Assembly: GCA_937920105.1 (NCBI GenBank)
Contig: CALETH010000131.1
Coordinates: forward strand, 6,400-70,399
Source: an uncultured Bacteroidota bacterium
GTDB lineage: Bacteria > Bacteroidota > Ignavibacteria > UBA10030 > UBA8401
Reading direction: 5' to 3'
DNA length: 64,000 bases
The translations under genes were made by a program, and so were the position numbers. This document shows, piece after piece, positions 16,278 to 34,373 of the stretch (its first letter is position 1; each line of letters begins with the position of its first letter). The notes under the pieces were generated by a model. That model was not told the DNA's origin. It did not search any database and saw nothing but the letters and a program-made list of their open reading frames with translations.

Positions 16278-16289
16278 ATATCGTTGTGA

Positions 16290-16375: not shown

Positions 16376-16403
16376 AACATATTTCCAAATTTTATAAAAA
16401 ACC

Positions 16404-16781
16404 ATGCTTACCGATTTTGGTAGAATACTTATTTTTTTTATTGTAGGAATAATTTTCACGGCTGGTGGACTTATTACTTCGTGGTTGTTACGACCTAAAC
16501 GTCCATATCCGGCAAAACTTTCTTCGTACGAATGCGGTGAAGAAGCAACCGGAGATTCTCGAATTCAATTCAATATTCGTTTTTATATTATTGCATTAAT
16601 TTTTGTAGTGTTTGAAGTAGAAGTGGTACTGTTATTTCCGTGGGCATTAGTGTTTAAAGAGTTTGGAATGTTTGCTTTTATTGAAATGCTTATTTTTCTT
16701 TTCATTCTCATAGTTGGTTATATGTACGTGTGGAAGAAAAAAGATTTGGAATGGGATGTACCGCAACCCAAAAATTGGTAA
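16404..16781 (+). CDS. nuoA: NADH-quinone oxidoreductase subunit A
   Basis: 125 aa, 3 TM, ND3/NuoA signature (SYECGEE...FDIRFY). Confidence 0.93.
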   Translation: MLTDFGRILIFFIVGIIFTAGGLITSWLLRPKRPYPAKLSSYECGEEATGDSRIQFNIRFYIIALIFVVFEVEVVLLFPWALVFKEFGMFAFIEMLIFLFILIVGYMYVWKKKDLEWDVPQPKNW

Positions 16782-16824
16782 CAAATTAATTCATTTATCT
16801 TAATAAACAATTAAAGAGACACAA

Positions 16825-18849
16825 ATGAAAAACAAATTTTTCATATATTATATAATTGCATTATTAATAATGCCAATAACCAGTCCCGCTCAATGGGCAA
16901 AAAATATAGGTGGTAATGCTAGTGATAGAGGTAGTAGTATTGCTAATGATGGTAATGGAAATGTGTATATAACAGGGTCTTTTCGTGGGACAGCAGATTT
17001 TGATACAGGTCCAGGAACGACAAACTTGATTGGGAAAGGTTGGACTGACATATATTTTGCAAAATACGATGTTTCCGGTTTATTATTGTGGGCAAAAAGT
17101 GTTGGGAGTACTAATTCTGATGGAGGTAATAGTATTGCTGTCGATGGTAGTGGAGATGTGTATGTAACAGGTTCCTTTGAAGGAATGGCAGATTTTGACC
17201 CTGGAGTAGGAACAACAAATTTGCCTTGGGTTGGTGGTGACGATATCTTTTTTGCAAAATACAAATCTAGTGACGGTTCGCTTATTTGGGCAAAAAGTAT
17301 TGGTGCTGCTAATGGTGCTTCCGAGGGTGGTAATAGTATTGCCATAGATGGAAGTGGAAATGTCTACATAACAGGTATATTTTATGGAACAGTAGATTTT
17401 GACCCAGGGCCAGGAACAACAAATTTAACAAGTGCTGGATATGATATATTTTTTGCGAAATATAGTGGGAATGATGGTTCACTTATATGGGCAAAAAGTG
17501 TTGGTGGTACTACTGATAATGATAAAGGTAATAGTGTTGCTATAGATGGTAGTGGAAATGTCTATATAACAGGACATTTTTTTGGCACAGTAGATTTTGA
17601 CCCAGGTTCAGGAACTGCAAATTTAACGAGTGTTGGTAATTATGATATCTTTTTCGCGAAATATAGTGGTAATGACGGTTCGCTTATATGGGCAAAAAGT
17701 ATTGGTGGTGCTAGTATTGATTATTGTAGCGATATTGTTGTAGATGGTAGTGCAAATGTATATTTAACTGGATATTTTGATTATACAGCAGATTTTGACC
17801 CCAGTGCTGGAGTCGCAAATTTGACAAGTGTTGGTTATGACATTTTTTTTGCCAAATATAACTCTACGGGTTCGCTTTTATGGGTAAAAGGTATAGGGGG
17901 TGGTGGTACTGATGGTAGCGCTAGTATAGATATAGATGGAAGTGGAAATGTGTATGTAACAGGTTCTTTTCAAGGAGCGGTAGATTTTGACCCTGGAGTA
18001 GGAACGACAAGTTTAACTAGTGTTGGTGGTTCCGATATCTTTTTTGCGAAATATAATTCTACTGGTTCATTTGTGTGGGAAAAAAAAATTGGAAGTGGCG
18101 GTGACGATTTTGGTACTAGTCTTGCCTTAGATGGCAGTGGAAATGCCTATACAACAGGATATTTTAATGGAACAGCCGATTTTGACCCATCAACCAATGC
18201 AGCCGATACATTAAAATTAACCAGCAGTGATGATGATATCTTTTTTGCAAAATATAGAACTATTGATGGTCTTCTTCCCGTAGAACTTACCTCATTTACA
18301 GCAACATCAAAAAATAGTGCTGTAGAGTTATCATGGAGTACAGTGAGTGAAATAAATAATTTTGGATTTGAAATTGAGAAAGCAGAAATCCATAATCAAT
18401 CATCAGAAAAACAGTGGAAAAAAATTAGTTTTGTACAGGGAAACGGAACAAGCAATATCCAACACCATTACACATTTATTGATAAAAATGTTACTACAGG
18501 AAAATTTATATATCGATTAAAACAAATTGATATGGATGGAAAGTTTACGTACAGCGAAGAAATAGAAGGAAATGCAGAAATTCCAAAAGAGATAACATTA
18601 TCCCAAAATTATCCAAACCCCTTTAATCCTGTAACAACAATTAATTATGAAATCCCACAAACCGGAAAAGTGTATTTAAAAGTGTACAATGTGTTAGGAG
18701 AAGAAGTCGCAACACTGGTGAATGGAATGCAGGAAGCGGGAAGATATTCTACACAATTTGACGCATCGAAATATTCTTCTGGAATATATTTTTATAAACT
18801 CACATCGAATAATTATATATTAGTAAAATCAATGGTATTGGTGAAATAA
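16825..18849 (+). CDS. Secreted SBBP-repeat beta-propeller protein with T9SS C-terminal sorting domain
   Basis: Signal peptide; about 10 repeats of GNSIAxDGSGNVYxTGxFxGTxDFDPGxGTTNLTSxGxxDIFFAKY (SBBP-like); C-terminal Por_Secre_tail-like domain (NYPNPFNP...GIYFYKL). Confidence 0.8.
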   Translation: MKNKFFIYYIIALLIMPITSPAQWAKNIGGNASDRGSSIANDGNGNVYITGSFRGTADFDTGPGTTNLIGKGWTDIYFAKYDVSGLLLWAKSVGSTNSDGGNSIAVDGSGDVYVTGSFEGMADFDPGVGTTNLPWVGGDDIFFAKYKSSDGSLIWAKSIGAANGASEGGNSIAIDGSGNVYITGIFYGTVDFDPGPGTTNLTSAGYDIFFAKYSGNDGSLIWAKSVGGTTDNDKGNSVAIDGSGNVYITGHFFGTVDFDPGSGTANLTSVGNYDIFFAKYSGNDGSLIWAKSIGGASIDYCSDIVVDGSANVYLTGYFDYTADFDPSAGVANLTSVGYDIFFAKYNSTGSLLWVKGIGGGGTDGSASIDIDGSGNVYVTGSFQGAVDFDPGVGTTSLTSVGGSDIFFAKYNSTGSFVWEKKIGSGGDDFGTSLALDGSGNAYTTGYFNGTADFDPSTNAADTLKLTSSDDDIFFAKYRTIDGLLPVELTSFTATSKNSAVELSWSTVSEINNFGFEIEKAEIHNQSSEKQWKKISFVQGNGTSNIQHHYTFIDKNVTTGKFIYRLKQIDMDGKFTYSEEIEGNAEIPKEITLSQNYPNPFNPVTTINYEIPQTGKVYLKVYNVLGEEVATLVNGMQEAGRYSTQFDASKYSSGIYFYKLTSNNYILVKSMVLVK

Positions 18850-18873
18850 ATTCATAAACCCTGCCATAGTTAG

Positions 18874-18905
18874 AGACCTGTCAAGTTTAAAAACTTGACA
18901 AGTCT
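18874..18905. repeat. Palindromic repeat AGAC-stem-TTTAAAA-stem-GTCT (variant A)
   Basis: agacctgtcaagtttaaaaacttgacaagtct, preceded by aaccctgccatag (half of the 6918 hairpin). Confidence 0.8.
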
Positions 18906-18916
18906 AATAAAAAATC

Positions 18917-19411
18917 ATGGGACTTCTTGATAAACAAATTAACAGCAGCAATATCGTCATCACATCGTTAGATAATTTGATGAATTGGGCAAGACTTTCT
19001 TCTCTTTGGCAAATGCAATTTGGATTAGCATGTTGTGCAATAGAAATGATGGGAGCAGCAGCATCAAATTATGATATTATGCGTTTCGGAGTTATTCCGC
19101 GAGCAACCCCACGTCAATGTGATGTGATGATTGTTTCCGGAACGGTAACCTTAAAAATGGCATCACGTGTGAAACGTTTGTATGACCAAATGTCTGAACC
19201 ACGTTATGTTATTTCTATGGGAAGTTGTTCTAATTGCGGAGGTCCATATTGGGAACACGGTTATCATGTGTTGAAAGGAGTGGATAGAGTAATTCCTGTA
19301 GATGTGTACGTTCCCGGATGTCCGCCAAGACCAGAAGCATTGTTGGAAGGTGTCATTAAATTACAAGAAAAAATTCGCAGTGAAGGTGTTGGAAAGAAGA
19401 AAGTAGCGTAA
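18917..19411 (+). CDS. nuoB: NADH-quinone oxidoreductase subunit B
   Basis: 164 aa, Fe-S cluster N2 cysteines ([20 protein letters not shown]). Confidence 0.95.
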
Positions 19412-19442
19412 TTTTTTTTATTGATAATAAAAAGGTATTATT

Positions 19443-19649
19443 ATGAAATTTACTATCACAATCAATCGTGATGAAGATGGGATGTATATTGCAGAATGTC
19501 CATCTATTCCAGGTTGCTTTAGTCAAGGAAAAACCGAAGAAGAAGCACAAAAAAATATTCAAGAGGCAATCAAAGAATGTTTAGATGTGCGAGCAGAAAA
19601 AGGAATGCCCTTAACTATTTCCACTCGCCAAGTTGAGGTTGCTATTTAA
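19443..19649 (+). CDS. hicB: HicB-family antitoxin (short, UPF0150-like)
   Basis: 68 aa, DGMYIAECPSIPGCFSQGKTEEEAQKNIQEAI matches the HicB N-terminal fold; TAATG junction with hicA. Confidence 0.7.
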   Translation: MKFTITINRDEDGMYIAECPSIPGCFSQGKTEEEAQKNIQEAIKECLDVRAEKGMPLTISTRQVEVAI

Positions 19650-19879
19650 TGCCCCAAGTGCCACTTCTTCGTCCAAAAGATATTATTAAAGTTTTTGAAA
19701 AACTTGGCTGGGAAGTTGTACGTCAACGAGGAAGTCATATCATTCTTACCAAAGAAGGGAGTATTTCAACATTGTCAGTTCCTAATCATTCTGAAGTTGC
19801 TCGTGGTACATTAAGAGGTCTTATTCAAAAAGCAGGAATAACAATAGAACACTTTATCGAAGTTTTACAAACGTTATGA
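19649..19879 (+). CDS. hicA: HicA-family mRNA interferase toxin
   Basis: 76 aa, ...VRQRGSHIILTKEG... matches the HicA motif; its stop overlaps the nuoC start (ATGA). Confidence 0.75.
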   Translation: MPQVPLLRPKDIIKVFEKLGWEVVRQRGSHIILTKEGSISTLSVPNHSEVARGTLRGLIQKAGITIEHFIEVLQTL

Positions 19880-20352
19880 TTACTCCACAAGAAGTATTTG
19901 ATATACTACAATCCAAGTTTGGTGAGAAAATTTTGGAGTTACAACTTCAAACACATAATCCATTTATAAAAATTTCATCAGATGGATTATTAGAAATTGC
20001 ACAATTTCTTCGAGATGATGAACGATTTCAATTTGATTATCTTTCTTGCCTTTCAGGGATGGATTATGAAAAAACGCTTGGAGTTGTGTATCATCTTTTT
20101 TCTATGAAAAAAAAACATAAGATTGTTATCAAGGTTGAAGTGTCAAAAGAAAATCCGATAATTCCATCCGTAGAAAAAATTTGGAAAACCGCAAACTGGC
20201 ACGAACGCGAAGCATACGATTTATTTGGAATTATTTTTTCTGAACATCCGGATTTACGACGGATTCTTTTACCGTATGATTGGGAAGGACATCCACTACG
20301 AAAAGATTATCAAGTTCCGGAATATTATAATGGAATGAAAGTTCCGTATTAA
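19876..20352 (+). CDS. nuoC: NADH-quinone oxidoreductase subunit C
   Basis: 158 aa, 30 kDa subunit signature (EREAYDLFGIIFSEHPDLRRIL). Confidence 0.93.
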   Translation: MITPQEVFDILQSKFGEKILELQLQTHNPFIKISSDGLLEIAQFLRDDERFQFDYLSCLSGMDYEKTLGVVYHLFSMKKKHKIVIKVEVSKENPIIPSVEKIWKTANWHEREAYDLFGIIFSEHPDLRRILLPYDWEGHPLRKDYQVPEYYNGMKVPY

Positions 20353-20361
20353 AAATATTTT

Positions 20362-20628
20362 ATGAAATATCTCCTATGGTTTTTTGTCGCTATTAATGCA
20401 GCAATCGGAATTAAATACCTTTTGAGTTCTTTTGGTGTATTCAAAATGCGATATTATCCATTTATTACAGAATTTATTTTTGCTGTTGTACTGCTTGGTA
20501 CGGCTGCGGTGGCATTATATATTTATCATTATAAAGAAATCATGTGGTTATCATTTCTTATTGTTTGTTCACCACTTATGCTTTTGTGTATAGTAGTATT
20601 TTTTTCAATGGTAACAGGTAAATATTAA
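20362..20628 (+). CDS. Small hypothetical membrane protein (3 TM)
   Basis: 88 aa hydrophobic ORF wedged between nuoC and nuoD. Confidence 0.45.
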   Translation: MKYLLWFFVAINAAIGIKYLLSSFGVFKMRYYPFITEFIFAVVLLGTAAVALYIYHYKEIMWLSFLIVCSPLMLLCIVVFFSMVTGKY

Positions 20629-20674
20629 CTTATAAACTATATTTTTATCAACTAATTATACAGGGAGTTATAAT

Positions 20675-21196
20675 ATGAAAAGCATGTTCTTCGTCATCGC
20701 AATTATTTTTTTCACACTTCCAATCTATGCACAAGTACAAGTAGAGGAAGGTCAGGAAGATGAATGCTATCAAGAAATTATTCAAGATATGAACAAAGAA
20801 ATAGCAGAAGCACCAACGAACGCAGAGTTGTATATCACACGTGGCAATGCGAAATATTATTTAGATGATTTTCGTGGAGCAATGTCTGACTACAAACAAG
20901 CATTAGAAAATAATGAAAGTTCTGCAGAAGCATATTGCCGGCTTGGAATGGTGAAGTTGCAATTTCTCAATCAATTTGAAGAATCGCTTGCAGATTTTGA
21001 AAAATCCATTGAGTTAAATGAAAAATATGCTCTTGCGTATTATGGTAGAGGTTTAGCAAAAATTGCCAAACAAGAAGATGATAAAGAAGGCGGTTGTGCA
21101 GATTTAAGCAAAGCCGGAGAATTAGGAGAAATCAAAGCATATCAAGCATTAAAAAATTTGTGTAAAAGTTCTAAAGATGTAGCAAAAGAAGAATAA
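20675..21196 (+). CDS. Secreted TPR-repeat protein
   Basis: Signal peptide MKSMFFVIAIIFFTLPIYAQ, then TPR-like helical repeats. Confidence 0.6.
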   Translation: MKSMFFVIAIIFFTLPIYAQVQVEEGQEDECYQEIIQDMNKEIAEAPTNAELYITRGNAKYYLDDFRGAMSDYKQALENNESSAEAYCRLGMVKLQFLNQFEESLADFEKSIELNEKYALAYYGRGLAKIAKQEDDKEGGCADLSKAGELGEIKAYQALKNLCKSSKDVAKEE

Positions 21197-21211
21197 ATTT
21201 TACATATCTGC

Positions 21212-22366
21212 ATGTCTAAAGGAGCGCATCTACATAACATTGCAACAAAAAATCTTCGTACCGAGGAAATGGTTCTCAATATGGGACCGCAACATCCATC
21301 AACGCATGGGGTGCTGCGGCTTGAACTTCTTGTTGATGGAGAAATTGTTGTTGATGTCATTCCCCACATAGGTTACCTTCATCGCTGTTTTGAAAAACAC
21401 GCCGAACAAATGCTCAACTATCAACAAATCATTCCGTATGTTGATAGGATGGATTATGTTGCTTCCATGACGAATGAGTTTGCATTTGTTACCGCCGCAG
21501 AAAAACTTTTCAATATTCAAGTTCCCGAACGAGTAGAATACATTCGCGTAATTATGGCGGAGTTGCAACGCATCGCCAGTCATCTTATTGCTGTTGGAAC
21601 CTACGGAATTGATATTGGAGCGTTCACACCATTTTTATATTGTTTCCGTGACCGCGAAAAAATTTTAGATTTATTTGAGATGACCTCCGGTGCACGGCTT
21701 CTTTACAATTATATGTGCATTGGCGGATTGTATCATGATTTGCCAAATGGATTTATTGAAAAAGCAAAAGAATTTTGTCAATACTTTAGAAAACAATTAA
21801 AAGATTTTAATGATTTATTGACATACAATGAAATTTTTATAAACCGAACAGCAAATGTGGGAATCCTTCCTGTAGATGTTGGTATTAATTATGCATGCAG
21901 TGGTCCAATGTTGCGGGGTTCCGGTGTAGATTGGGATTTGCGCCGTGATGACCCATATTCAATTTATCATAAATTGGAATGGGAAGTTTGTGTTGCAAAA
22001 GGGGAAGTGGGAAAGATTGGTGATTGTTGGAATAGACATTTTGTGCGTGTGCGAGAAATGGAGCAAAGCATTCTTATAATAGAGCAAGCGTTGGCACAAC
22101 TTCCGGAAGGAGATGTGAAATCCGCAATTCCTAAAAGAATACGACCGTTGCCTGCAGAAATTTACGTACGCACAGAAGCACCACGTGGAGAATTGGGATT
22201 TTATATTGTGAGTGATAATTCTACATCACCGTACCGTGTGAAAGCACGTTCATCTGCATTTGTGAACTTGAGTGTGATTGCAGAAATTGCTCGTGGTGCA
22301 ATGCTTGCCGATATGGTTGCCATTATCGGAAGTATTGATATTGTGTTGGGTGAAGTGGATAGATGA
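21212..22366 (+). CDS. nuoD: NADH-quinone oxidoreductase subunit D
   Basis: 384 aa, 49 kDa subunit ([16 protein letters not shown]). Confidence 0.96.
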
Positions 22367-22439
22367 TGTTTAATGGAAAGTTGCAAATGAGGAATTGATA
22401 ATATAAAAAATAATATACTTTTAAATAAGTGAGGTATTT

Positions 22440-22691
22440 ATGATAACAGCAAAAGAAGCCACACAAGCAGCAATAAAATATTTCCAAGAAGTTTTTAATG
22501 GCCGTTATGATAATTTAGCAGTAGAAGAAATCGAATTATCTTCTGATGAAAAATTTTGGTCTATTACACTTGGTTATAATATGATGTCAACAATGACAAT
22601 GCTTGTACCTACATCGCAACGAACATATAAAGAATTTAAAGTTTCTGCTGAAAGTGGTAAAGTTACTGCGATGAAAATCCATAATGTTTAA
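22440..22691 (+). CDS. Small hypothetical protein, possibly PepSY-like
   Basis: 83 aa; weak resemblance to the PepSY fold pattern (LAVEEIEL...FKVSAESGKVTAMKI). Confidence 0.35.
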   Translation: MITAKEATQAAIKYFQEVFNGRYDNLAVEEIELSSDEKFWSITLGYNMMSTMTMLVPTSQRTYKEFKVSAESGKVTAMKIHNV

Positions 22692-22696
22692 TATAT

Positions 22697-23207
22697 ATGG
22701 CGGATTATTATATTGAATTGTTAAAAAAATATTATTCTAAAGGTATACTTATAGATACAAATTTACTTTTGATATTTATTATTGGAATGTGTGATAAAAA
22801 TTATATCGCAACATTTAAGCGAACAAAGACATTTTCGTCTGAAGATTATGATATTCTTTTTCATATACTTCAACCATTTTGTAAAATCATAACAACACCA
22901 AATATTCTTACAGAAGTTAGTAATCATCTCGGATTTTTAGAGGAGTCTTTGAAACAGAAAGTTTTGAAAACTTATTTCTAATAATATTAATTCTTATTTT
23001 GCGGAAAGTTATCATAAAAGCAATTTTCTTTCTTCAAAAGATTTTTTTCATAAATTTGGACTTACGGATTCCAGCATTATTGAAGAAGCAAAAAATAAGT
23101 ATTTAGTTCTTACGGAAGATTTAAAATTAACCAATTATCTCCAATACCAAAAAATAGATGTCATGAATTTTCATCATTTGCAAACAATAAATTGGTATTC
23201 AACATAA
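22697..23207 (+). pseudogene. PIN-domain (VapC-like) nuclease gene disrupted by a +1 frameshift near 22968-22981
   Basis: Track ORF 22697..22981 encodes the PIN N-terminal motif (GILIDTNLLL). The C-terminal half (…FAESYHKSNFLSSKDFFHKFGLTDSSIIEEAKNKYLVLTEDLKLTNY…, stop about 23207) continues in a different frame with no start codon. Confidence 0.65.
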
Positions 23208-23242
23208 TATAAACCCATTTCACTCACTTAAATTTATCTATT

Positions 23243-24373
23243 ATGGAAAACTCATACACAGAAACAACATCAAAATCTTGGGGAAATAGAATAATGGAAT
23301 CTCTCAAAGGGATTCTTTTCGGACTTCTTCTTGTTGCACTTGCATTTATCGTTTTATGGTGGAACGAAGGACGTGCCGTAAAAACTGCAAAAAGTTTAGA
23401 AGAAGGTGCATCCAGCGTTGTAACAATTTCTTCATCTGCTGTTGCAAAAGAAAACGAGCAAAAACTTGTTCATCTTACCGGAATGGCAACAACAAATGAA
23501 ATATTAATTGATGCAGATTTTAAAATTTCTCTTCCTGCAATTAAACTTAGAAGAATTGTGGAAATGTATCAATGGAAAGAAGAAAAATCTGAAAAGAAAG
23601 AAAAGAAAATGGGCGGCTCGGAAGAAACGGTAACAACGTATTCTTATAAAAAAGTGTGGGATGATAATATTATTTCTTCTGAAAATTTTAAACAAAAAGA
23701 AGGACATACTAATCCAACAACATTTCAATATTCTTCATCTGAAAAAATTGCACAAAATGTTCAAGTTGGTGGCTTTACACTTTCACCATCACTCATTCAA
23801 AAAATAAATAAATACGAAAAACTCAATCCGCAAACATTTGATTCTACACAAAAATCTTCGCAAGAAATTTATATTGGAAGAGGAAATATTAATTCACCGG
23901 AAATTGGAGATGTAAAAATCTCTTTTGAAGCAGTAAAGCCAATCGAAGTAAGCATTGTTGCAAAACAAGTAGGAAATTCTTTTGAACCATATAAAGCAGA
24001 AGCCGGCGGTGAAGTAGAATTACTGGAGTATGGAAATGTTCCTGCCGCAAAAATGTTTTCTGAAGCACAATCCACCAATACAACAATGACATGGATTTTC
24101 CGCATTGCTGGAATTGCAATGATGTTTTTTGGAATTATGACAATTTTTAAACCACTCGTTACCGTTGCTGATGTGTTACCATTTCTCGGAAGTATATTAA
24201 ATATGGGACTCGGAATTTTTTCTGCTGTAATTTCATTTTCATTAAGTTTTATTACCATTGCCCTTGCGTGGTTATTTTACCGTCCTGTGTTGGGAATTAT
24301 TTTATTAGTTATTGGTATTGGAATTTTTGTGGGAATAAAATTTATTTCACCGAAAAAGAAAACAGCGAAATAA
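23243..24373 (+). CDS. TMEM43-like (DUF1625-type) membrane protein
   Basis: 376 aa, N-terminal TM (LFGLLLVALAFIVLWWNEGR), large soluble domain, C-terminal cluster of TM helices; architecture resembles bacterial TMEM43 homologues. Confidence 0.5.
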   Translation: MENSYTETTSKSWGNRIMESLKGILFGLLLVALAFIVLWWNEGRAVKTAKSLEEGASSVVTISSSAVAKENEQKLVHLTGMATTNEILIDADFKISLPAIKLRRIVEMYQWKEEKSEKKEKKMGGSEETVTTYSYKKVWDDNIISSENFKQKEGHTNPTTFQYSSSEKIAQNVQVGGFTLSPSLIQKINKYEKLNPQTFDSTQKSSQEIYIGRGNINSPEIGDVKISFEAVKPIEVSIVAKQVGNSFEPYKAEAGGEVELLEYGNVPAAKMFSEAQSTNTTMTWIFRIAGIAMMFFGIMTIFKPLVTVADVLPFLGSILNMGLGIFSAVISFSLSFITIALAWLFYRPVLGIILLVIGIGIFVGIKFISPKKKTAK

Positions 24374-24380
24374 GATTTGT

Positions 24381-24405
24381 AGGGACGGTTGCAAAACCGT
24401 CCTTG
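24381..24405. repeat. Hairpin with GGTTGCAAAACC core
   Basis: agggacggttgcaaaaccgtccttg; sister copy agaatggttgcaaaaccattcca at 2664-2686. Both lie just 3' of plus-strand stop codons. Confidence 0.6.
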
Positions 24406-24416
24406 GAAATTTTTAG

Positions 24417-24523
24417 AGAAACGTTCCCTCTATTTTGAAAAAAATCCAAAAGATGGAAAATTGTGGAAGAAAATAAAAGACGAATTTCTTAAAGCAAAAA
24501 ACTATAAGAGAATAGAAAAATAG
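24417..24523 (+). other. Degenerate duplicate of the 3' end of the antitoxin gene 24614..24841
   Basis: gaaacgttccctctattttgaaaaaaatccaaaagatggaaaattgtggaagaaaataaaagacgaatttcttaaagcaaaaaactataag aligns at about 85% with 24751-24841 (…RSLYFEKNPEGGKLWEEIKDEFLKGKKL). Confidence 0.75.
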
Positions 24524-24534
24524 AAACTGAAATA

Positions 24535-24567
24535 AGATTTGTCTAGTTTCAAAAACTTGACAAATCT
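24535..24567. repeat. Palindromic repeat AGAT-stem-TTTAAAA-stem-ATCT (variant A)
   Basis: agatttgtctagtttcaaaaacttgacaaatct. Confidence 0.8.
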
Positions 24568-24613
24568 AATCATAGTAATCCTATAAATTAAGGTCAAATC
24601 AAGAGGCAAATGT

Positions 24614-24841
24614 ATGCAAACACATCTTCGTAATAAAATAAATAAATTGAGCGTTTCTGAAAAAATTTTACTCGTTGAAGAACTTTGGGATGATATTGCT
24701 CGTAAGAATGAAACTTTTGAATTATCACAAAGTCAAAAAAGTGAATTAGAGAAACGCTCACTCTATTTTGAAAAAAATCCAGAAGGTGGAAAATTGTGGG
24801 AAGAAATAAAAGACGAATTTCTTAAAGGCAAAAAATTATAA
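24614..24841 (+). CDS. Putative addiction-module antitoxin (TIGR02574-like) paired with ParE-type toxin
   Basis: 75 aa, LSVSEKILLVEELWDDI...SQSQKSELEKR...NPEGGKLWEEIKDEF matches the 'putative addiction module component' family pattern. Confidence 0.7.
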   Translation: MQTHLRNKINKLSVSEKILLVEELWDDIARKNETFELSQSQKSELEKRSLYFEKNPEGGKLWEEIKDEFLKGKKL

Positions 24842-25134
24842 TGTCTATTCGTTTTCATCCTGAATCTGAAAAAGAATTAAAAGAGTCCGTTTATTGGTAT
24901 GAATATCAACGTAAAGGTCTTGGATTTGAATTTCTTTTTTGTGTTGATGAAGCCATAGAACAAATAAAAAATCGTCCTCAAATGTATCCACTCGTTACAG
25001 AAAAAACTCGTCGTATAGTTGTTAAAAGATTTCCCTTTGCTATTTTTTACGAAACAAATAAATCCAGTATTTATATTTTGGCTATTTTTCATTTACGACG
25101 CAATCCAAAAGAATGGAAAAATAGAAAATCATAG
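24841..25134 (+). CDS. ParE/RelE-family toxin (plasmid stabilisation system protein)
   Basis: 97 aa, IRFHPESEKELKESVYWYE...FPFAIFYE...IYILAIFHLRRNPKEW; TAATG overlap with the antitoxin gene. Confidence 0.75.
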   Translation: MSIRFHPESEKELKESVYWYEYQRKGLGFEFLFCVDEAIEQIKNRPQMYPLVTEKTRRIVVKRFPFAIFYETNKSSIYILAIFHLRRNPKEWKNRKS

Positions 25135-25171
25135 TCATATCATTACAATCCTATAAATCATAGTTTAAGCC

Positions 25172-26218
25172 ATGCCCGAGTTTCTTACCAATATTTTTGG
25201 AAAAACAATAATTGTTCACATTATCATGGGAGCAGTACCGTTATTATTTATACTTCCGTACGCTCTTGTAGTTATTTATGTGGAAATGAAACTTTCTTCC
25301 CACATGCAAAACCGTGTGGGATATATGAGAACCGGTTGGCATGGAACACTGCAACCTTTTGCAGATATTTTCAAACTCTTACAAAAAGAAAATATTGTTC
25401 CAGCAGAAGCAGATAAAATTTTATTTTCATTAGCACCATTTATAGTTTTTATCGGAATGTATGCTGCGTACGCAGTGCTGCCTTTTGGAAGCGGATATGT
25501 TGGCAGCGAAATGGAAATCGGAATTTTTTATCTACTCGCAGTTTCTTCATTAGTGGTTGTAGGAATTTTGATGGCTGGCTGGTCATCCAATAATAAATGG
25601 TCATTATTAGGAGCAATGCGTTCTGTTGCACAAATTGTAAGTTACGAAATTCCGGCAGCATTAGCATTGCTTGGAGTGGTGATGCTTGCCGGAACAATGA
25701 ATACCGAAATGTTAAGTGCAATGCAATCCGGTGGAATGCACGAATGGTTTATTTTTGGCGGAACATTACCATTGTGGAAAAAATTTACAATCATTCCCTT
25801 TATGTTTATAATTTTTTTGGTGTATCTCGTTTCATCAATGGCAGAGGTAAATCGGACACCATTTGATTTGCCCGAAGCAGAATCTGAATTAGTGCAGGGT
25901 TACAATACAGAATACAGCGGAATGAAATTTGCTATTTTTTATTTAGCAGAATATGGAAATTTATTTTTAATTTCTGCTATTGCAGTAATTGTATTTTTTG
26001 GCGGATATACAAGTCCGTTTGGAAAATTTCTTTCCGGAGGTGTGTGGGATGTTTTTTGGTTTATCACCAAAGGAATGTTGTTAGTACTTATTAATATTTG
26101 GATTCGTTGGACTCTTCCTCGTTTGCGAGTTGACCAACTCATGTACGTTTCATGGAAAGTCCTTACACCATTTGCTTTGGTTGGAATTATTGTTATCGGA
26201 TTTATTTTGGTTGTGTAA
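25172..26218 (+). CDS. nuoH: NADH-quinone oxidoreductase subunit H
   Basis: 348 aa polytopic membrane protein with ND1/NuoH signature (SEMEIGIFYLLAVSSL, RTPFDLPEAESELVQGYNTEYSG). Confidence 0.96.
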   Translation: MPEFLTNIFGKTIIVHIIMGAVPLLFILPYALVVIYVEMKLSSHMQNRVGYMRTGWHGTLQPFADIFKLLQKENIVPAEADKILFSLAPFIVFIGMYAAYAVLPFGSGYVGSEMEIGIFYLLAVSSLVVVGILMAGWSSNNKWSLLGAMRSVAQIVSYEIPAALALLGVVMLAGTMNTEMLSAMQSGGMHEWFIFGGTLPLWKKFTIIPFMFIIFLVYLVSSMAEVNRTPFDLPEAESELVQGYNTEYSGMKFAIFYLAEYGNLFLISAIAVIVFFGGYTSPFGKFLSGGVWDVFWFITKGMLLVLINIWIRWTLPRLRVDQLMYVSWKVLTPFALVGIIVIGFILVV

Positions 26219-26223
26219 GTTTT

Positions 26224-26256
26224 ATATTTGTCAAGTTTTTAAAACTTGACAAATCT
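26224..26256. repeat. Palindromic repeat stem-TTTTTAAAA-stem (variant A)
   Basis: atatttgtcaagtttttaaaacttgacaaatctgtat. Confidence 0.8.
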
Positions 26257-26277
26257 GTATGATATAACTTTATAAGT

Positions 26278-26814
26278 ATGCAATACTTTATCAACATATA
26301 TAAATCACTCCGTTCAGTTATTGTTGGGTTGAAAATTACTGCGAAAAATCTTTTTAAGCCAACAGTAACGATTCAATATCCGGATGTGAAAAAAGCAATG
26401 CCGGAGCGGACAAGAAATCGTTTGTATGTCAATATGGATGATTGTATTGGCTGCGACCAATGTGCAATTGCATGTCCGGTAAACTGCATTACCATAGAAA
26501 CAATCAAATCAACACCCGAAGATAATCTTGGTGTAACATCAACAGGACACAAAAAGAAACTTCATGTTCCCGTGTTTGATATTGATATTGCGAAATGTTG
26601 TTATTGTGGATTGTGCGTTCCACCATGTCCCACAGATTGTATTGTGATGACACCGGTGTACGAATTTTCTGAATTTGATAGACAAAATTTAATTTATAAT
26701 TTCAGCACGATGACCCCTTCTGAAATTGAAACAGCAAAACTCAAAGCAAAGAAAATGGAAGAAGAAATTGCTGCGAAAAAATCAGCACAAAATTCTACAA
26801 CTGGTTCTGTATAA
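26278..26814 (+). CDS. nuoI: NADH-quinone oxidoreductase subunit I (2x[4Fe-4S] ferredoxin)
   Basis: CIGCDQCAIACP and CCYCGLCVPPCP motifs. Confidence 0.95.
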   Translation: MQYFINIYKSLRSVIVGLKITAKNLFKPTVTIQYPDVKKAMPERTRNRLYVNMDDCIGCDQCAIACPVNCITIETIKSTPEDNLGVTSTGHKKKLHVPVFDIDIAKCCYCGLCVPPCPTDCIVMTPVYEFSEFDRQNLIYNFSTMTPSEIETAKLKAKKMEEEIAAKKSAQNSTTGSV

Positions 26815-26816
26815 AC

Positions 26817-26862
26817 TCCCCTCTGTGTATTGGCAAGAGCAATGGAGAGAGGGGTGTGTCCA
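26817..26862. repeat. Repeat family P hairpin
   Basis: cccctctgtgtattggcaagagcaatggagagaggggtgtgtcc, compare 10741-10795. Translation of this element produces the spurious N-terminal extension of the nuoJ ORF in the track. Confidence 0.75.
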
Positions 26863-26907
26863 AAAAATAAGAAGAAAAAATTAAGAATTAAGAAAGATAC
26901 TATTACA

Positions 26908-27420
26908 ATGTTCCTCCAACTTTTCGACATCATCTTTTATTTTTTTGCAACAGTAACACTCATTTCTGCAGGGATTGTTGTATTCTCAAAAAATATAGTA
27001 CGCTCAGCATTCTCATTAGTCTTTACATTTTTTGGAATTGCCGGATTGTATGTATTATTGAATGCAGATTTTGTTGCTGTAGCACAACTCTTTGTGTACG
27101 TTGGCGGAATTTTAGTATTACTATTATTTGCAGTTATGTTAACACAAAAAATTTCTAATCTACAAATGAAAATAACAACACTTCATCCAATAATTGCAAT
27201 AATTCTTGTTGCATCACTTATTGGTGTATTGTGCGGAATTGTGCGGATGAATGACTGGCGAATTATTACAATTTCTGAAATACCACAATCCACAGCACAA
27301 TCAATTGGAAAGGCATTGATAACAACACATATTCTTCCATTTGAAATTATTTCCGTTATTTTACTCGTTGCAATTATCGGAGCAGCAATGCTCGCAAGAA
27401 AGAGCGAAAAAAAATCATGA
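26908..27420 (+). CDS. nuoJ: NADH-quinone oxidoreductase subunit J
   Basis: Start chosen at MFLQLFDIIFYFF (ATG 26908) because the track's first 26 codons lie inside a repeat element; 5 TM ND6/NuoJ-like. Confidence 0.85.
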   Translation: MFLQLFDIIFYFFATVTLISAGIVVFSKNIVRSAFSLVFTFFGIAGLYVLLNADFVAVAQLFVYVGGILVLLLFAVMLTQKISNLQMKITTLHPIIAIILVASLIGVLCGIVRMNDWRIITISEIPQSTAQSIGKALITTHILPFEIISVILLVAIIGAAMLARKSEKKS

Positions 27421-27722
27421 TAACACTTCATCATTTTTTATTTGTTAGTATTATTCTTTTTGGATTAGGTGTGTATGCAGTTTTAACACGTCGCAATGCA
27501 GTGATGGTATTGATGGGAATAGAACTTATTCTCAATGCAGCCAATCTCAATTTTGTTGCTTTTTCTCGTTATGGTGGATTGAAATTAGATGGACAAATGT
27601 TTGCGTTGTTTGTGATTATTCTTGCAGCAGCAGAAGCCGCTGTTGCATTAGCTATCATTCTCAATATTTATCAACGCTTCAATACTATTAATGTGGATGA
27701 TGTTGATACGTTGAAAGAGTGA
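27417..27722 (+). CDS. nuoK: NADH-quinone oxidoreductase subunit K
   Basis: 101 aa, 3 TM, ND4L/NuoK (GIELILNAANLNFVAFS). Confidence 0.95.
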   Translation: MITLHHFLFVSIILFGLGVYAVLTRRNAVMVLMGIELILNAANLNFVAFSRYGGLKLDGQMFALFVIILAAAEAAVALAIILNIYQRFNTINVDDVDTLKE

Positions 27723-27865
27723 CCCTGATTTTCAAGATTACAAGATTACGATGATGTAATTAACAAAATTTTTACTTTGCATCTTAGCGACTTTGCGAGA
27801 CAAAACAAATCCGCGAAAATCATAAAAATCTTAACAATCAGTGCTTTATCAAATAATATAATTTA

Positions 27866-29896
27866 ATGCAAAAAACACTTTTACAATTATCTTTTATTGT
27901 TTTTATTCTTCCTCTGTGCAGTTTTCTTTTTCTTATTTTTTTCGGAAAAAAACTGCGAGCGGAAATATTCGCAACTTCTGTTATTGCAGTAACATTTCTT
28001 TTAAGCATATTTATTGCAACTATAAAATTTTTATCTTTTCCTCAAGAAACATTTCATTATTCTTTTTCTTGGATAAATTTTCCCATCAAGATAGAAACCG
28101 GAATTTTACTCGATAATCCCGCAGCAATAATGCTTGTTATCGTAACATTCATCAGTTTTCTTGTACATCTTTTTTCTATAGAATATATGAAAGGAGATGT
28201 ACGTTACTCACGATATTTTTCTTATCTTGGATTTTTTACCACATCAATGCTCGGAATAATTCTCACCGATAATCTTTTTACGATGTACATGTTTTGGGAA
28301 TTGGTTGGTATTAGTTCCTATCTTCTCATCGGACATTGGTACGAAAAAACTTCTGCTGCCAACGCATCAAAAAAAGCATTTATCGTCAATCGCATTGGTG
28401 ATGTAGGAATGTTCATTGGAATTATGTTGTTGTGGAATAATTTTCACACACTCACATTTGAAGGAATTTTTTCTTCACTCAATACTATAGAAAACACATC
28501 ACTACTAACTGTTGCTGGACTTTTACTTTTTTGCGGAGCAATTGGAAAATCTGCACAATTTCCATTACAAGTGTGGTTGCCGGATGCTATGGAAGGACCA
28601 ACTCCCGTGAGTGCATTAATTCATGCAGCAACAATGGTGGCTGCAGGTGTGTATCTGGTGCTTCGCATTTTTCCGTTACTTACCATCGAAGCGTTAACCG
28701 TGATTGCGTACATCGGAGCAGTTACAGCATTTATTGCAGCAACAATTGCAGTTGTTCAAACAGACATCAAAAAAATATTGGCGTACTCTACAATAAGTCA
28801 GTTGGGATATATGATGCTTGGTTTGGGTTCACTTGGATATACAGCGGGATTTTTTCATTTAGTTACACATGCAATTTTTAAGGCGGGACTTTTTCTCGGA
28901 GCCGGTTCGGTAATTTATGCAATGCACAATTCAATACAGGCATTACATCACACAAAAAATCATGATGTTGATGCACAAAATATTTTTTTTATGGGTGGAT
29001 TGAAAAAGAAAATGCCAATTACATTTTGGACTTTTCTTATGTGCACTTTTGCACTCACGGGAATTCCATTGACTTCCGGATTTTTAAGTAAAGATGAAAT
29101 TCTTACATCAGCACTTGTCTTTGGAAACCACACCAATAATTTTCTTCTTCCGTTGTTGGCTTTCAGTACGGTGATGTTAACATCATTTTATATGTTTCGT
29201 CTTATCATTGTTGCATTTTTAGGAAATCATATTGATGAAAAAAGAATAGAACACATTCACGAATCTCCCAAAGTGATGCTCGTACCATTGATTGTATTGG
29301 CAGTGTTATCATTTTTTGTTTTCTATTCGTTCAATCCATTTTCTGTATCAAACAGTTGGTTTACAAAAATTATTACTTTACCACGTTCACTTATTTCAAC
29401 CTATCTTCCTGAACACAGAAAATTTGCAGTAACACCACATCAACAAATACACACTCTTGCAATGGTTGTTTCGTTTGGGGCAACATTATTAGGAATATTA
29501 TTTGCATTTCTTTTGTATTATTGGAAAAAGATTTCTCCACAAAAGATTGCACAAAAATCTCGTTTATTATATTCATTTTTTTCTCAACAATGGTACTTTG
29601 ATAGATTCTATAATATATTTGTGGTGAAAGGAACACTTGCATTTTCTAAAATTTTTTCTTGGTTTGATGTAAAAGTTATTGATGGATGTGTGAATGGAAC
29701 AGCAGTACTATTTCAAAAAATTTCTTTTGTGAGTGGAAAATTTGATTCCATTATTGTTGATGGAATCGTTAATTTTATTGCGTATTTTTCCGGCATGTTG
29801 GGATTAGGGTTACGAAAAATCCAAACAGGAAAAGTGCAAACTTACATTGCATTAGTAATCGTTGGAATTTTAATTTTATTTTTTGTGTATAAATGA
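27866..29896 (+). CDS. nuoL: NADH-quinone oxidoreductase subunit L
   Basis: 676 aa antiporter-like subunit (WLPDAMEGPTPVSALIHAATMV). Confidence 0.96.
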   Translation: MQKTLLQLSFIVFILPLCSFLFLIFFGKKLRAEIFATSVIAVTFLLSIFIATIKFLSFPQETFHYSFSWINFPIKIETGILLDNPAAIMLVIVTFISFLVHLFSIEYMKGDVRYSRYFSYLGFFTTSMLGIILTDNLFTMYMFWELVGISSYLLIGHWYEKTSAANASKKAFIVNRIGDVGMFIGIMLLWNNFHTLTFEGIFSSLNTIENTSLLTVAGLLLFCGAIGKSAQFPLQVWLPDAMEGPTPVSALIHAATMVAAGVYLVLRIFPLLTIEALTVIAYIGAVTAFIAATIAVVQTDIKKILAYSTISQLGYMMLGLGSLGYTAGFFHLVTHAIFKAGLFLGAGSVIYAMHNSIQALHHTKNHDVDAQNIFFMGGLKKKMPITFWTFLMCTFALTGIPLTSGFLSKDEILTSALVFGNHTNNFLLPLLAFSTVMLTSFYMFRLIIVAFLGNHIDEKRIEHIHESPKVMLVPLIVLAVLSFFVFYSFNPFSVSNSWFTKIITLPRSLISTYLPEHRKFAVTPHQQIHTLAMVVSFGATLLGILFAFLLYYWKKISPQKIAQKSRLLYSFFSQQWYFDRFYNIFVVKGTLAFSKIFSWFDVKVIDGCVNGTAVLFQKISFVSGKFDSIIVDGIVNFIAYFSGMLGLGLRKIQTGKVQTYIALVIVGILILFFVYK

Positions 29897-29952
29897 ATAT
29901 AATTTTAAAAAAATACAATTTTATATTTATAAACTATAATAAGGAATAAATT

Positions 29953-30627
29953 ATGCCATGGATGGAATTCATTAGAGAAGATTCTTACGTAAGTAAGGAT
30001 AGCCCAAATATAGCAATAACCAGCGACCGCAAATTCATGTTTAATTCTCAGTTTGTCAGATTAGCTGGCTTGAATATCAAACAACGGGTGGTAGTTCATA
30101 TTCATCCAGAGACGTATAGAATTGGATTTGAATTTGTTACAGATGATAATCAAAATTCTTTCCAATTAGGTTATCAATCTCGTGGTAGTAAATCAGGAGG
30201 ACTTAATTGTACAGCTGGAGCAGTAATTAATAGATTTGCTTGGATAAAGGCAATTTCAGAATTAAAATCTCCCCAAGCAAAACGTTTTTCTCCAAAACAA
30301 GATAGAGAAATGGGGAAATTGGTATGGGCAATACAACTTTGTCCGGCTTTTGAAATTAGCGAGTCTAGAGAAGCAAATAATATTCCAAGTGGAGCAAAAG
30401 GAATATATCGGTATAAACGTCATAGTGGAGAAATAGTTTATATAGGTAAAGGAGATATAAAGAGTAGATTAAATGAACCTCAAAGACGAGAATGGAAGTT
30501 TGATACAATTGAGTATTCAATTGTAGAAGATGTAGATGCAAGAACAAAATGGGAAGAATTTTGGATTGTTCGTTTTCAAGAAGAAAATAAACAACAACTT
30601 CCAATGTATAATAAAATTTCTGCTTAA
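29953..30627 (+). CDS. Swapped-hairpin (AbrB/MazE-like) N-terminal domain fused to a GIY-YIG nuclease domain
   Basis: 224 aa; the N-terminal IAITSDRKFMFNSQFVRLAGLNIKQRVVVHIHPETYRIGFEFV resembles AbrB/SpoVT-type DNA-binding barrels; the C-terminal GIYRYKRHSGEIVYIGKG...R...E is a GIY-YIG core. RBS aaggaa. Confidence 0.6.
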   Translation: MPWMEFIREDSYVSKDSPNIAITSDRKFMFNSQFVRLAGLNIKQRVVVHIHPETYRIGFEFVTDDNQNSFQLGYQSRGSKSGGLNCTAGAVINRFAWIKAISELKSPQAKRFSPKQDREMGKLVWAIQLCPAFEISESREANNIPSGAKGIYRYKRHSGEIVYIGKGDIKSRLNEPQRREWKFDTIEYSIVEDVDARTKWEEFWIVRFQEENKQQLPMYNKISA

Positions 30628-30663
30628 AATTATAGAATATATTTTTACATATTTGATACAATT

Positions 30664-32244
30664 ATGCAATTCACATTTCTCAATATAGGAATACTCACAT
30701 GGCTAACATTCTTACCATTGGTAGGAATGCTGTGTATCTTTTTTCTTCCACAAAAAAAATCACAACTAGCAAAATGGATAACATTAGGTTGCACAACAAT
30801 CCAATTGTTATTAGCAACAATCATTTATATAAAATTTGATAGAACATTAGCAGGAGTAAATTCTATCGAAGGAATGCAATTCAAAGAAATTTTTCCATGG
30901 ATTTCTATTAACAGTACAGAATGGTTCGGGAAAATTTCCATTCAATATTTTTTAGGAATTGATGGACTCAGTGTTCCGATGATTTTATTAACAGCAATTA
31001 TTTCTTTCATTGCCGTTCTTGCATCATGGAAAATAGAAAAATCCGTGAAAGGATATTTTTCATTATTTCTTTTATTAAACACCGGAATGTTTGGCGTTTT
31101 TGTTGCGTTAGATTTTTTCTTGTTCTTTATTTTTTGGGAATTAATGTTGTTACCAATGTATTTTCTTATTGGAGTGTGGGGTGGAGAGCGAAGAGAATAT
31201 GCAGCAGTAAAATTTTTCCTCTACACATTATTTGGTTCAGTGCTGATTTTATTAGTGATGTTGGCATTATACTTTAGTGTTACTGTTACTGATGCAATAA
31301 CTGGAGAAAAAATGCACACCTTCAATATGCTCGCAATGATGAATCCACAAAATTTTGAAAACAATTCACTCTTATTCGGACTTCACACTTATTGGAGATA
31401 CATTGCATTTATTGCACTCTTTATTGGATTTGCAATTAAATTACCGTTGTTTCCATTTCACACATGGCTGCCTGATGCACACGTGGAAGCACCAACAGCA
31501 ATCAGCGTTATTCTTGCCGGCATACTTTTAAAAATGGGTGGATATGGTTTAGTGAGAATTGCATTACCAATTTTTCCGGATGCAGCAATACACTATGTAT
31601 ATCCTATTGCCTTTTTGGGATTTATTAATATTGTGTATGGTGCATTGTGTGCAATGGCACAAAAAGATTTTAAAAAACTCATTGCCTATTCATCCGTCAG
31701 CCACATGGGAATTGTAGTGTTGGGAATTGCAGCGTTAAATACGCAAGGAATGGTTGGAGCAATGTTGCAAATGTTCAATCACGGAACAATTACCGCAATG
31801 CTCTTTGTTATTGTCGGCGTATTGTATGATAGAACACACACACGTCAGATAAGTGAGTTTGGCGGGTTGATGAATAAAATGCCAAAATATTCTGCATTAG
31901 TAGTCATTGCATTTTTTGCATCACTTGGTTTGCCGGGATTAAGCGGATTTATTTCTGAGGCCTTTTCATTTCTCGGTGCATTTCAAACTCATCAATGGTT
32001 AACTATTGCTTCCACATCTGGAATAGTATTAACCGCCGCTTATATGTTGTGGACTTTTCAACGTGTGTATTTAGGAACACTTCCGGAAAAATGGAATTCA
32101 CTACAAGATATTTCCAAACGAGAGTTATTGATGTTAGTTCCGCTAGCAATCATTATAATATTTTTAGGAATTTATCCAACACCAATGTTAGAATTAATGA
32201 ATACTTCTGTGAACGCTCTTGTTGAAATGGTAAAAGTGAAATAA
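30664..32244 (+). CDS. nuoM: NADH-quinone oxidoreductase subunit M
   Basis: 526 aa antiporter-like subunit (FPFHTWLPDAHVEAPTAISVILAGILLKMGGYG). Confidence 0.96.
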   Translation: MQFTFLNIGILTWLTFLPLVGMLCIFFLPQKKSQLAKWITLGCTTIQLLLATIIYIKFDRTLAGVNSIEGMQFKEIFPWISINSTEWFGKISIQYFLGIDGLSVPMILLTAIISFIAVLASWKIEKSVKGYFSLFLLLNTGMFGVFVALDFFLFFIFWELMLLPMYFLIGVWGGERREYAAVKFFLYTLFGSVLILLVMLALYFSVTVTDAITGEKMHTFNMLAMMNPQNFENNSLLFGLHTYWRYIAFIALFIGFAIKLPLFPFHTWLPDAHVEAPTAISVILAGILLKMGGYGLVRIALPIFPDAAIHYVYPIAFLGFINIVYGALCAMAQKDFKKLIAYSSVSHMGIVVLGIAALNTQGMVGAMLQMFNHGTITAMLFVIVGVLYDRTHTRQISEFGGLMNKMPKYSALVVIAFFASLGLPGLSGFISEAFSFLGAFQTHQWLTIASTSGIVLTAAYMLWTFQRVYLGTLPEKWNSLQDISKRELLMLVPLAIIIIFLGIYPTPMLELMNTSVNALVEMVKVK

Positions 32245-32684
32245 TGAAGATATCAGAAAACATCATCCCACTGTCCTTAGAAGAAGTAATAATTTTACAA
32301 AAAAAACGGACGAAAATTATTATTGCTTTATCTAAAATAGAAATTTTTTCTTTGGGAGTATTATTTTTCTTTTTTCGAAATAATCTTAATGAAATAGTAT
32401 TTTTTGTCCTTTTAGGTTGTGTTACAGTTTTGTTGATAGTGATTAGTTTTATAGCAGTAAAACAAATAAATAAAGATTTATATAAAGATATAAAAAAAAT
32501 AATTATAGGTACTATTGATAATAAACTTATTGAGTTTTATAAATCTCCATCGTATTACCTTTTTATCGGTAACGAAAAAATTTTTGTTGATAAAAAAACA
32601 TATCAACAATATGAAATTGGTGCTAAGATAGAGATTCATATCACTTTTTACAGTCAACACGTATTTATTATTAAGTATCTTTAA
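32244..32684 (+). CDS. Small 2-TM membrane protein, paralogue 1 (possibly bPH_2/DUF304-like)
   Basis: Starts MKISENIIPLSLEE; two TM helices then about a 75-aa soluble domain ending KIEIHITFYSQHVFIIKYL; TAATG-coupled to nuoM. Confidence 0.5.
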   Translation: MKISENIIPLSLEEVIILQKKRTKIIIALSKIEIFSLGVLFFFFRNNLNEIVFFVLLGCVTVLLIVISFIAVKQINKDLYKDIKKIIIGTIDNKLIEFYKSPSYYLFIGNEKIFVDKKTYQQYEIGAKIEIHITFYSQHVFIIKYL

Positions 32685-34242: not shown

Positions 34243-34269
34243 TATGATTAAGTTATTCAAAAAAACAAT

Positions 34270-34350
34270 GTCATTCCCACATGTTTTTAGTGGGAATCCA
34301 TTTTTTAAATTTTCGTAAAAATATGGATTCCCGCTTTCGCGGGAATGACC
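34270..34350. repeat. Two REP-like palindromes (gtcattcccac-N-gtgggaatcc; ggattcccgctttcgcgggaatgacc)
   Basis: The first is near-identical to 13016-13044; the second is the GAAA-loop type also seen at 50529. Their translation gives the spurious MFLVGIHFLNFRKNMDSRFRGNDLKKF extension of the nuoN ORF in the track. Confidence 0.75.
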
Positions 34351-34373
34351 TTAAAAAATTTTGTATTCGCTTT

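Follow-up and report, generated by a model that had tools for sequence, protein, structure and literature searches.

Gerdes (2024, mBio, PMC10865869) divided the loci that encode HicA toxins into 14 classes. In classical HicAB modules (Classes 3 and 4), such as those of E. coli K-12, B. pseudomallei and Y. pestis (HicA3B3), the toxin gene comes first and HicB carries a C-terminal helix-turn-helix (HTH) or ribbon-helix-helix (RHH) domain that autorepresses its own promoter (PMC10865869). In Class 2, designated hicBA, the antitoxin gene comes first, HicB is 63 to 103 codons long and lacks a DNA-binding domain, and the two genes are closely linked or overlapping. The same survey found hicBA with a HicB of this kind to be the commonest bicistronic arrangement of HicA, and left the regulation of Classes 1 and 2 unexplained (PMC10865869). 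Here we describe a hicBA pair located between the complex I genes nuoB and nuoC of an uncultured bacterium of the Ignavibacteria (Bacteroidota), on contig CALETH010000131.1 of assembly GCA_937920105.1. The window, that is, the whole stretch of DNA analyzed, spans 64,000 nucleotides (positions 6,400 to 70,399 of the contig), and all coordinates refer to it. We consider it quite probable that the pair is an acquired Class 2 HicBA cassette residing as a passenger in the nuoB/nuoC junction of an operon for 11 subunits of NDH-1.

The initial annotation of this DNA proposed a hicB-hicA pair between nuoB and nuoC, and profile searches of both open reading frames (ORFs) support it. HicB matched PF15919 at 41.5 bits (E 1.8e-10, cut-off 27), aligning to profile positions 1-58 of 123, and HicA matched PF07927 at 70.6 bits (E 1.2e-19, cut-off 27) with the profile covered end to end. 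All four genes from nuoB to nuoC score well above the Pfam curated cut-offs (Table 1). Judged from sequence, adjacent ORFs that match the cognate toxin and antitoxin profiles are far beyond what chance would provide. The annotation also placed hicB 31 nt past nuoB with no terminator between them, and described an ATGA overlap of the hicA stop with the nuoC start at 19876-19879; the sequence and a terminator scan agree with both statements. The nuoC ATG is the first start possible in its frame, and NuoC proteins of relatives align from residue 1 or 2, so the start call is correct. Through this overlap hicBA is physically welded to nuoC. By itself, the ATGA is an ordinary operon feature, because the operon contains three overlaps of 4 nt and four of 1 nt. 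The TAATG junction of hicB with hicA is kept in four of five aligned cassettes. An assembly chimera was considered and rejected, since a contig from a separate assembly record in ENA (L001) is 100% identical across 6233 nt, from nuoB-hicBA-nuoC to beyond nuoD, and the GC content at third codon positions (GC3) is host-like.

The predicted toxin has the sequence and fold expected of HicA. It retains all 19 columns that are invariant in an alignment of 39 homologues, S29 and H30 among them. Its intact G28-S29-H30 corresponds to the conserved Gly-x-His catalytic motif and lines up with the GSH residues in Y. pestis HicA3 and in 9svk. An AlphaFold2 (AF2) model with a mean predicted local distance difference test (pLDDT) score of 92.8 has an alpha-beta-beta-beta-alpha topology (H9-18, E21-27, E30-35, E41-45, H52-61) plus an extra C-terminal helix. 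Its best Foldseek matches are 1whz (template modeling (TM) scores 0.79/0.85), 6g26, 4p78, 4c26 and 6hpb, and the best structural matches in the PDB include the HicA toxins of B. pseudomallei, Y. pestis and E. coli. HicB consists only of the N-terminal HicB domain, whose partial RNase H-like fold is beta-beta-beta-alpha-beta, and is too short to hold a DNA-binding domain as well. Sequence matches in the PDB are 6g1c and 6g1n, the N-terminal domain of B. pseudomallei HicB. The AF2 model (pLDDT 78.7, beta-beta-beta-alpha, with low confidence in the last 15 residues) returned only HicB N-domains as best Foldseek matches, with TM scores of 0.78-0.80 for 6g1c. This short HicB is not a truncation, because close homologues, 79-88% identical, are essentially all exactly 68 amino acids (aa) long.

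Given that hicB precedes hicA, has 68 codons, encodes no DNA-binding domain and overlaps hicA by 1 nt, the module is by these features a Class 2 hicBA, and every testable defining feature of the class is present. At the module level we find no difference from other Class 2 modules, which share the antitoxin-first order, a small HicB lacking a DNA-binding domain, a HicA of 60-85 aa and overlapping genes. Assignment to Classes 3 and 4 fails on gene order and on a HicB of 68 aa with no HTH or RHH domain; moreover, no operator or promoter is recognizable here. What the module does share with classical HicAB is the double-stranded RNA-binding domain-like fold of HicA with its conserved His, and the N-terminal domain of HicB. 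The antitoxin-first order noted in the initial annotation is therefore real, but its premise that canonical hic loci are toxin-first does not carry over to this module: the order is native to Class 2. In all 12 independent contexts of close homologues, hicB (68 aa) is followed by hicA (73-76 aa) with a junction of 0-1 nt.

Close homologues of the cassette occur in a wide range of phyla, with identities of 70-83% for HicA and 79-88% for HicB, and come from Nostoc, Terriglobia, Deltaproteobacteria, Planctomycetota, Actinobacteria, Nitrospirota and others. Among all NuoC relatives, the identical ENA contig aside, the best is only ~67-70% identical. Conservation is thus much higher in the cassette than in the host backbone, which is what a horizontally spreading unit should show, and horizontal acquisition appears to be the best explanation for hicBA at this site. 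When five cassettes were aligned, DNA homology ran from ~15 nt before the hicB ATG, at a Shine-Dalgarno (SD)-like AAGG/AGGAG, to the hicA stop. The SD-like AAGG within the last ~15 nt of the nuoB-hicB spacer is thus part of the cassette. On the host side, 144 relatives have a median of 13 nt between nuoB and nuoC; the spacer is 60 nt or shorter in 122 and an overlap in 23, compared with an interval of 464 nt in this operon, which argues for insertion into an ancestrally tight junction. We found no flanking repeats, attC-like sites or inverted repeats bounding the cassette. Searches for this hicBA subfamily gave no matches in a viral contig collection and a single match, at 40% identity, in a plasmid collection; on these results an origin from a mobile element was rejected.

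The genomic neighborhoods of related cassettes vary widely. Copies with 70-88% identity adjoin sdhB, chlH/cobN, rmlC, a tRNA synthetase gene and ADH, or lie in toxin-antitoxin (TA) islands. In six of the 12 contexts the cassette begins no more than 71 nt downstream of a co-directional housekeeping gene (nuoB, sdhB, chlH/cobN, 3HCDH, ADH or rmlC). The upstream gene is co-directional in 10 of the 12, which is not significant against a baseline of ~70% (P ~0.25). It is divergent in the remaining two, so the cassette needs its own promoter there. For these two reasons the idea that the cassette is a promoterless rider was not upheld, and we keep it only as a hypothesis. The same Class 2 hicBA is found inside an rml (dTDP-sugar) operon (loci L200-L205, about 1000-2900), together with PemK/MazF-like pairs; it stands between rmlC and an epimerase gene, 32 nt from the former and 44-68 nt from the latter. 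In several assemblies of the rml operon, hicA has lost ~158 nt from its interior, and what remains is an orphan hicB, intact like both neighbors. The closest named cassette homologue, in a metagenome-assembled genome of the Bacteroidota (L162, 1-3231), follows sdhB. In that locus a 23S_rRNA_IVP gene lies between sdhA and sdhB, making it another respiratory operon with passengers.

Scans for regulatory signals around the cassette were largely negative. A consensus scan found no terminator-like sites on the + strand between 19127 and 24102 and no sigma-70-like promoter in the nuoB-hicB spacer, with a consensus that may not be the host's; overall match counts in the promoter and terminator scan equaled those of shuffled sequence. 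Scanning the cluster for the Bacteroidetes-type promoter motif TAnnTTTG gave two intergenic matches and was uninformative. The 31-nt spacer contains no palindrome, and upstream conservation among cassettes extends only ~15 nt. There was no significant RNA structure at either cassette boundary, and an Rfam search returned only a tRNA. The nuo promoter is the sole evident transcriptional input to this hicBA, which likely rides on the nuo transcript by read-through.

We propose the following mechanism. A cassette of ~450 bp, made up of the two ORFs and a short SD-like leader, would have entered a low-GC host of the Ignavibacteria/Bacteroidota group at a transcribed site that tolerates only co-directional, terminator-free inserts. 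There, hicBA would be transcribed by read-through from the nuo promoter; HicB would be translated first and neutralize HicA by direct binding, and any HicA set free would cleave mRNA. The overlapping stops and starts would be the product of ordinary operon compaction, perhaps with some termination-reinitiation into nuoC on which nuoC would not depend. Persistence of the cassette is probably that of a selfish addiction module, possibly with a role in phage defense as well. The same logic of insertion would account for the five other passenger blocks of the operon.

The initial annotation offered a different reason for persistence, namely that NuoC synthesis is coupled to translation of the toxin and that the cassette is thereby locked into complex I expression and cannot easily be lost. 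The ATGA overlap, the lack of an SD-like motif before nuoC and the lack of a terminator all fit this proposal, as does the zero slack at the 3′ end of the cassette, where imprecise deletions would harm nuoC. However, the missing motif is uninformative because none of the 11 nuo genes, nuoC included, has one, and the nuoC start lies in open RNA: the surrounding 120 nt fold at -11.2 kcal/mol (z = +1.4), a stability equaled or exceeded by 189 of 200 shuffles. Independent initiation of nuoC is therefore plausible, and nothing in these features points to NuoC requiring translation of the toxin. The claim that the pair is hard to lose did not hold up either. Spacers between nuoB and nuoC in relatives range from overlapping to ~177 nt and are not evidently conserved in sequence, and the rml-operon alleles show that hicA can be deleted internally while its flanks stay intact. 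We consider this explanation unlikely. We find it very improbable that HicBA is a domesticated regulator, in which HicA cleaves the polycistronic nuo mRNA or growth arrest is linked through HicBA to transcription of nuo, and we give just as little credence to the purposes it might serve, such as tuning the stoichiometry of complex I subunits or answering redox or energy stress. Such a role would draw on the likely co-transcription with nuo, on expression that follows the host promoter in the absence of an autoregulatory DNA-binding domain, on the second TA pair just before nuoH, and on the unrelated HicA modules that recur in the nuo junctions of two relatives (L007 and L044). Against it, copies 70-88% identical sit beside unrelated genes and in TA islands, which indicates no nuo-specific adaptation, and 42 of 68 relative loci with at least eight junctions observed have no insert at all.

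A third explanation sees the pair as inactive, a remnant in decay that is no more than tolerated. Signs of decay do exist nearby, as another passenger, orf94, may be a truncated gene (judged by eye, with no profile match) and a partial duplicate of an antitoxin gene lies at 24389-24523, and homologous cassettes do lose hicA. Yet neither ORF is shortened, their 68 and 76 aa being the lengths seen in homologues, and all invariant residues including S29/H30 are kept. Compared with seven homologous cassettes, the ratio of nonsynonymous to synonymous substitutions (dN/dS) is 0.04-0.14 for the cassette genes (0.07-0.14 for hicA), with synonymous sites saturated, and it is this low despite full amelioration of codon composition: GC3 is 0.16-0.22 for the two genes, like that of neighboring genes. 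Both genes are intact, under purifying selection and host-like in codon composition. The low dN/dS and host-like GC3 together show that they are coding, conserved and long resident, and we regard decay as highly improbable. Several points also weigh against the reading we prefer, that of an acquired Class 2 passenger. Scans of genomes and metagenome contigs with NuoC found no close relative free of the insert, and with the nearest NuoC only ~67-70% identical, distant outgroups are the sole guide to how old the insertion is and to its polarity. A promoter within hicA or within the 3′ end of nuoB is conceivable. PADLOC gave no defense-system match for hicBA or any other passenger. Finally, no Class 2 module has ever been tested experimentally for toxicity or neutralization (PMC10865869).

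The hicBA cassette is one of several passengers in the operon. Six of the ten nuo junctions (A/B, B/C, C/D, D/H, L/M and M/N) contain passengers on the same strand, ~14 ORFs in all, and several of these are tied to nuo genes or to one another by overlaps of 1 or 4 nt (Table 1). The second TA pair, of the TIGR02574 and ParE families, ends 37 nt before nuoH.

Table 1. Features of the nuo operon and its passengers (window coordinates)
Feature	Position	Strand	Basis or detail
nuoABCDHIJKLMN, 11 subunits in canonical order, without nuoEFG	16404..35822	+	Pfam on all ORFs
nuoB, NDH-1 20-kDa subunit, upstream host gene	18917..19411	+	Pfam PF01058 Oxidored_q6, E 2e-29; TAA stop 19409-19411
nuoB-hicB spacer, 31 nt, A/T-rich	19412..19442	+	sequence
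hicB, 68-aa antitoxin	19443..19649	+	Pfam HicB_lk_antitox PF15919
TAATG, one base common to hicB stop and hicA start	19647..19651	+	sequence
hicA, 76-aa toxin, putative mRNA interferase	19649..19879	+	Pfam HicA_toxin PF07927
ATGA, 4-nt overlap of hicA TGA (19877-19879) and nuoC ATG (19876-19878)	19876..19879	+	sequence
nuoC, NDH-1 30-kDa subunit, downstream host gene	19876..20352	+	Pfam PF00329 Complex1_30kDa, E 1.1e-49
TIGR02574-family antitoxin	24614-24841	+	NCBIfam TIGR02574, E 1.8e-13
ParE-family toxin	24841-25134	+	Pfam ParE_toxin, E 3.1e-7; 1-nt overlap with antitoxin
Junction A/B passenger			674-aa SBBP-repeat protein with type IX secretion sorting domain
Junction B/C passenger			hicBA
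Junction C/D passengers			88-aa membrane protein and TPR protein
Junction D/H passengers			two small ORFs, TMEM43-like protein, TIGR02574 antitoxin with ParE toxin
Junction L/M passenger			224-aa ORF
Junction M/N passengers			two paralogous ORFs and WG-repeat protein

We compared this density of inserts with that of relatives, counting a junction of 200 nt or longer as expanded. Only 65 of 945 nuo junctions in relatives (6.9%) are expanded, versus 6 of 10 here, and the 68 loci with at least eight junctions observed have a maximum of five expansions, with 42 having none. Inserted ORFs of at least 95 aa in nuo junctions are almost always on the nuo strand. Some of these inserts are TA-type genes. 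At the same nuoB/nuoC junction, L007 (1329-1887) has an unrelated hicBA whose HicB has a Phd-like N-terminus; its HicA is only 24% identical, which marks this as a separate insertion event. L044 has a toxin-first hicAB at nuoJ/nuoK (15831-16311) and a DUF2442/DUF4160 pair at nuoH/nuoI (14172-14640), and L054 (10512-11738) has a PIN-domain gene at nuoC/nuoD with an antitoxin-like ORF ~600 nt upstream of it. Other nuo junctions hold an MNT-like nucleotidyltransferase (L112), a GmrSD-like nuclease domain (L053) and, in several loci, retropepsin-like proteases or 23S_rRNA_IVP four-helix proteins. TA-type genes have thus been inserted independently into nuo junctions of distant relatives, and such recurrences suggest a repeatable process.

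Several further observations concern the passengers and the transcriptional layout of the operon. Next to the ParE pair, an 89-nt direct repeat (24413-24501 and 24746-24834, 90% identical) is the remnant of another antitoxin-gene copy. The ORFs orf83 and orf94 (22440-23242) are 5 nt apart and have no profile matches. Inspection of orf94 by eye revealed PIN-like motifs (ILIDTN..., TTPNILTE) followed by 261 nt of stop-ridden sequence, and it may be a truncated VapC-like gene with its partner. The paralogues orf146 and orf151 (32244-33139) share a 65-nt repeat (72% identical), overlap the nuoM stop and each other by 1 nt, and overlap the WG-repeat protein gene by 4 nt. A terminator-like hairpin with an 11-bp stem at 24380-24405, after the TMEM43-like passenger, is the sole convincing one on the + strand inside the cluster and may split the operon into two transcription units. 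Just upstream of nuoA, two G+C-rich hairpins (ttccctcctactaggagggaa and cccctcctaaataggagggg) at 16290-16385 probably form the boundary at which the preceding unit ends and the nuo transcription unit begins. A ~32-nt palindrome (AGATTTGTCAAGTTTT.AAAACTTGACAAATCT) occurs in intergenic copies at 7003-7035, 18874-18905, 24535-24567 and 26224-26256. Three of the four fall within the nuo cluster, where one precedes nuoB, another precedes the ParE pair and the third separates nuoH from nuoI. Their RNA hairpins, predicted at -13 to -20 kcal/mol, have no T-run, and the palindrome is absent from all fetched loci; it could be an element of the repetitive extragenic palindromic (REP) type, an operator or a processing hairpin.

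Downstream of the operon, a tRNA with a CAT anticodon (35880-35954) lies between nuoN and tilS. Given its position immediately before the lysidine synthetase gene, this tRNA may be tRNA-Ile2, on which TilS acts, and not tRNA-Met. In the tilS-hpt-ftsH cluster that follows (36002-41312), uncharacterized ORFs at 38089-38658 and 38655-39146 separate hpt from ftsH, and this genome may be prone to passenger insertion in general.

Taken alone, the module is ordinary, and its value is in its context. It provides a testable case for an open question, namely how HicBA modules without a DNA-binding domain are expressed and controlled. With 11 nuo genes, six passenger blocks and at least two TA pairs, the operon is an extreme example of how selfish or accessory genes can colonize an important operon and leave it unbroken. 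We tentatively hypothesize, while holding it to be doubtful, that conserved and steadily transcribed operons such as nuo, rml and sdh are recurrent safe harbors in which TA cassettes with neither a conserved promoter nor a DNA-binding domain gather co-directionally, along with other small selfish genes, that read-through from the host supplies the missing regulation of Class 1 and 2 HicBA, and that shut-off of the host operon frees the toxin. If so, read-through from the host promoter would be the regulation that Gerdes (2024) flagged as unexplained, and shut-off of the host operon, for example during phage infection or a respiratory shift, would be the trigger. Should a genome-wide survey bear out such enrichment, it would bear on models of how operons evolve and how TA modules persist; otherwise, this is just a crowded operon.

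Complex I clusters with interspersed unrelated ORFs have long been known, including the unidentified reading frames (URFs) of the Paracoccus denitrificans nqo cluster and the Rhodobacter capsulatus nuo cluster. These URFs are not known to be toxin-antitoxin pairs; in contrast, at least two of the passenger blocks described here are TA modules. TA modules that stand in line with unrelated genes and are transcribed with them are also familiar. In E. coli, relA-mazEF is a TA pair co-transcribed with a housekeeping gene, and Vibrio superintegrons stack TA cassettes in co-directional arrays, several per array as in this operon. The nuo locus differs from superintegrons in having no integron features (attC sites, integrase) and in that its array is built on an operon of 11 genes, which encode subunits of a single respiratory enzyme.

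Operon calling for complex I has made room for foreign genes, with Spero et al. (2015, PMC4453560) allowing up to 10 non-nuo ORFs between nuo genes. A literature search found no paper on TA modules inside nuo operons, and PMC10865869 does not describe a Class 2 module embedded between complex I genes with a start/stop overlap into the host gene. We have found no earlier description of a TA pair between complex I subunit genes, or of an operon this heavily colonized. The broader pattern is that laid out by Price, Arkin and Alm (2006, 'The Life-Cycle of Operons', PMC1480536), who reported that insertions within operons are much rarer than additions at their ends, that acquired genes are placed co-directionally so that the native promoter drives them, and that unrelated genes do occur in conserved operons, as in sdhCDAB-b0725-sucABCD. 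The passengers described here would likewise be acquired, co-directional genes on a native promoter, and the difference is that six internal junctions of a single operon have been filled. Genome evolution of this kind is already known; the operon is an unusually crowded instance of it and not a new mechanism.

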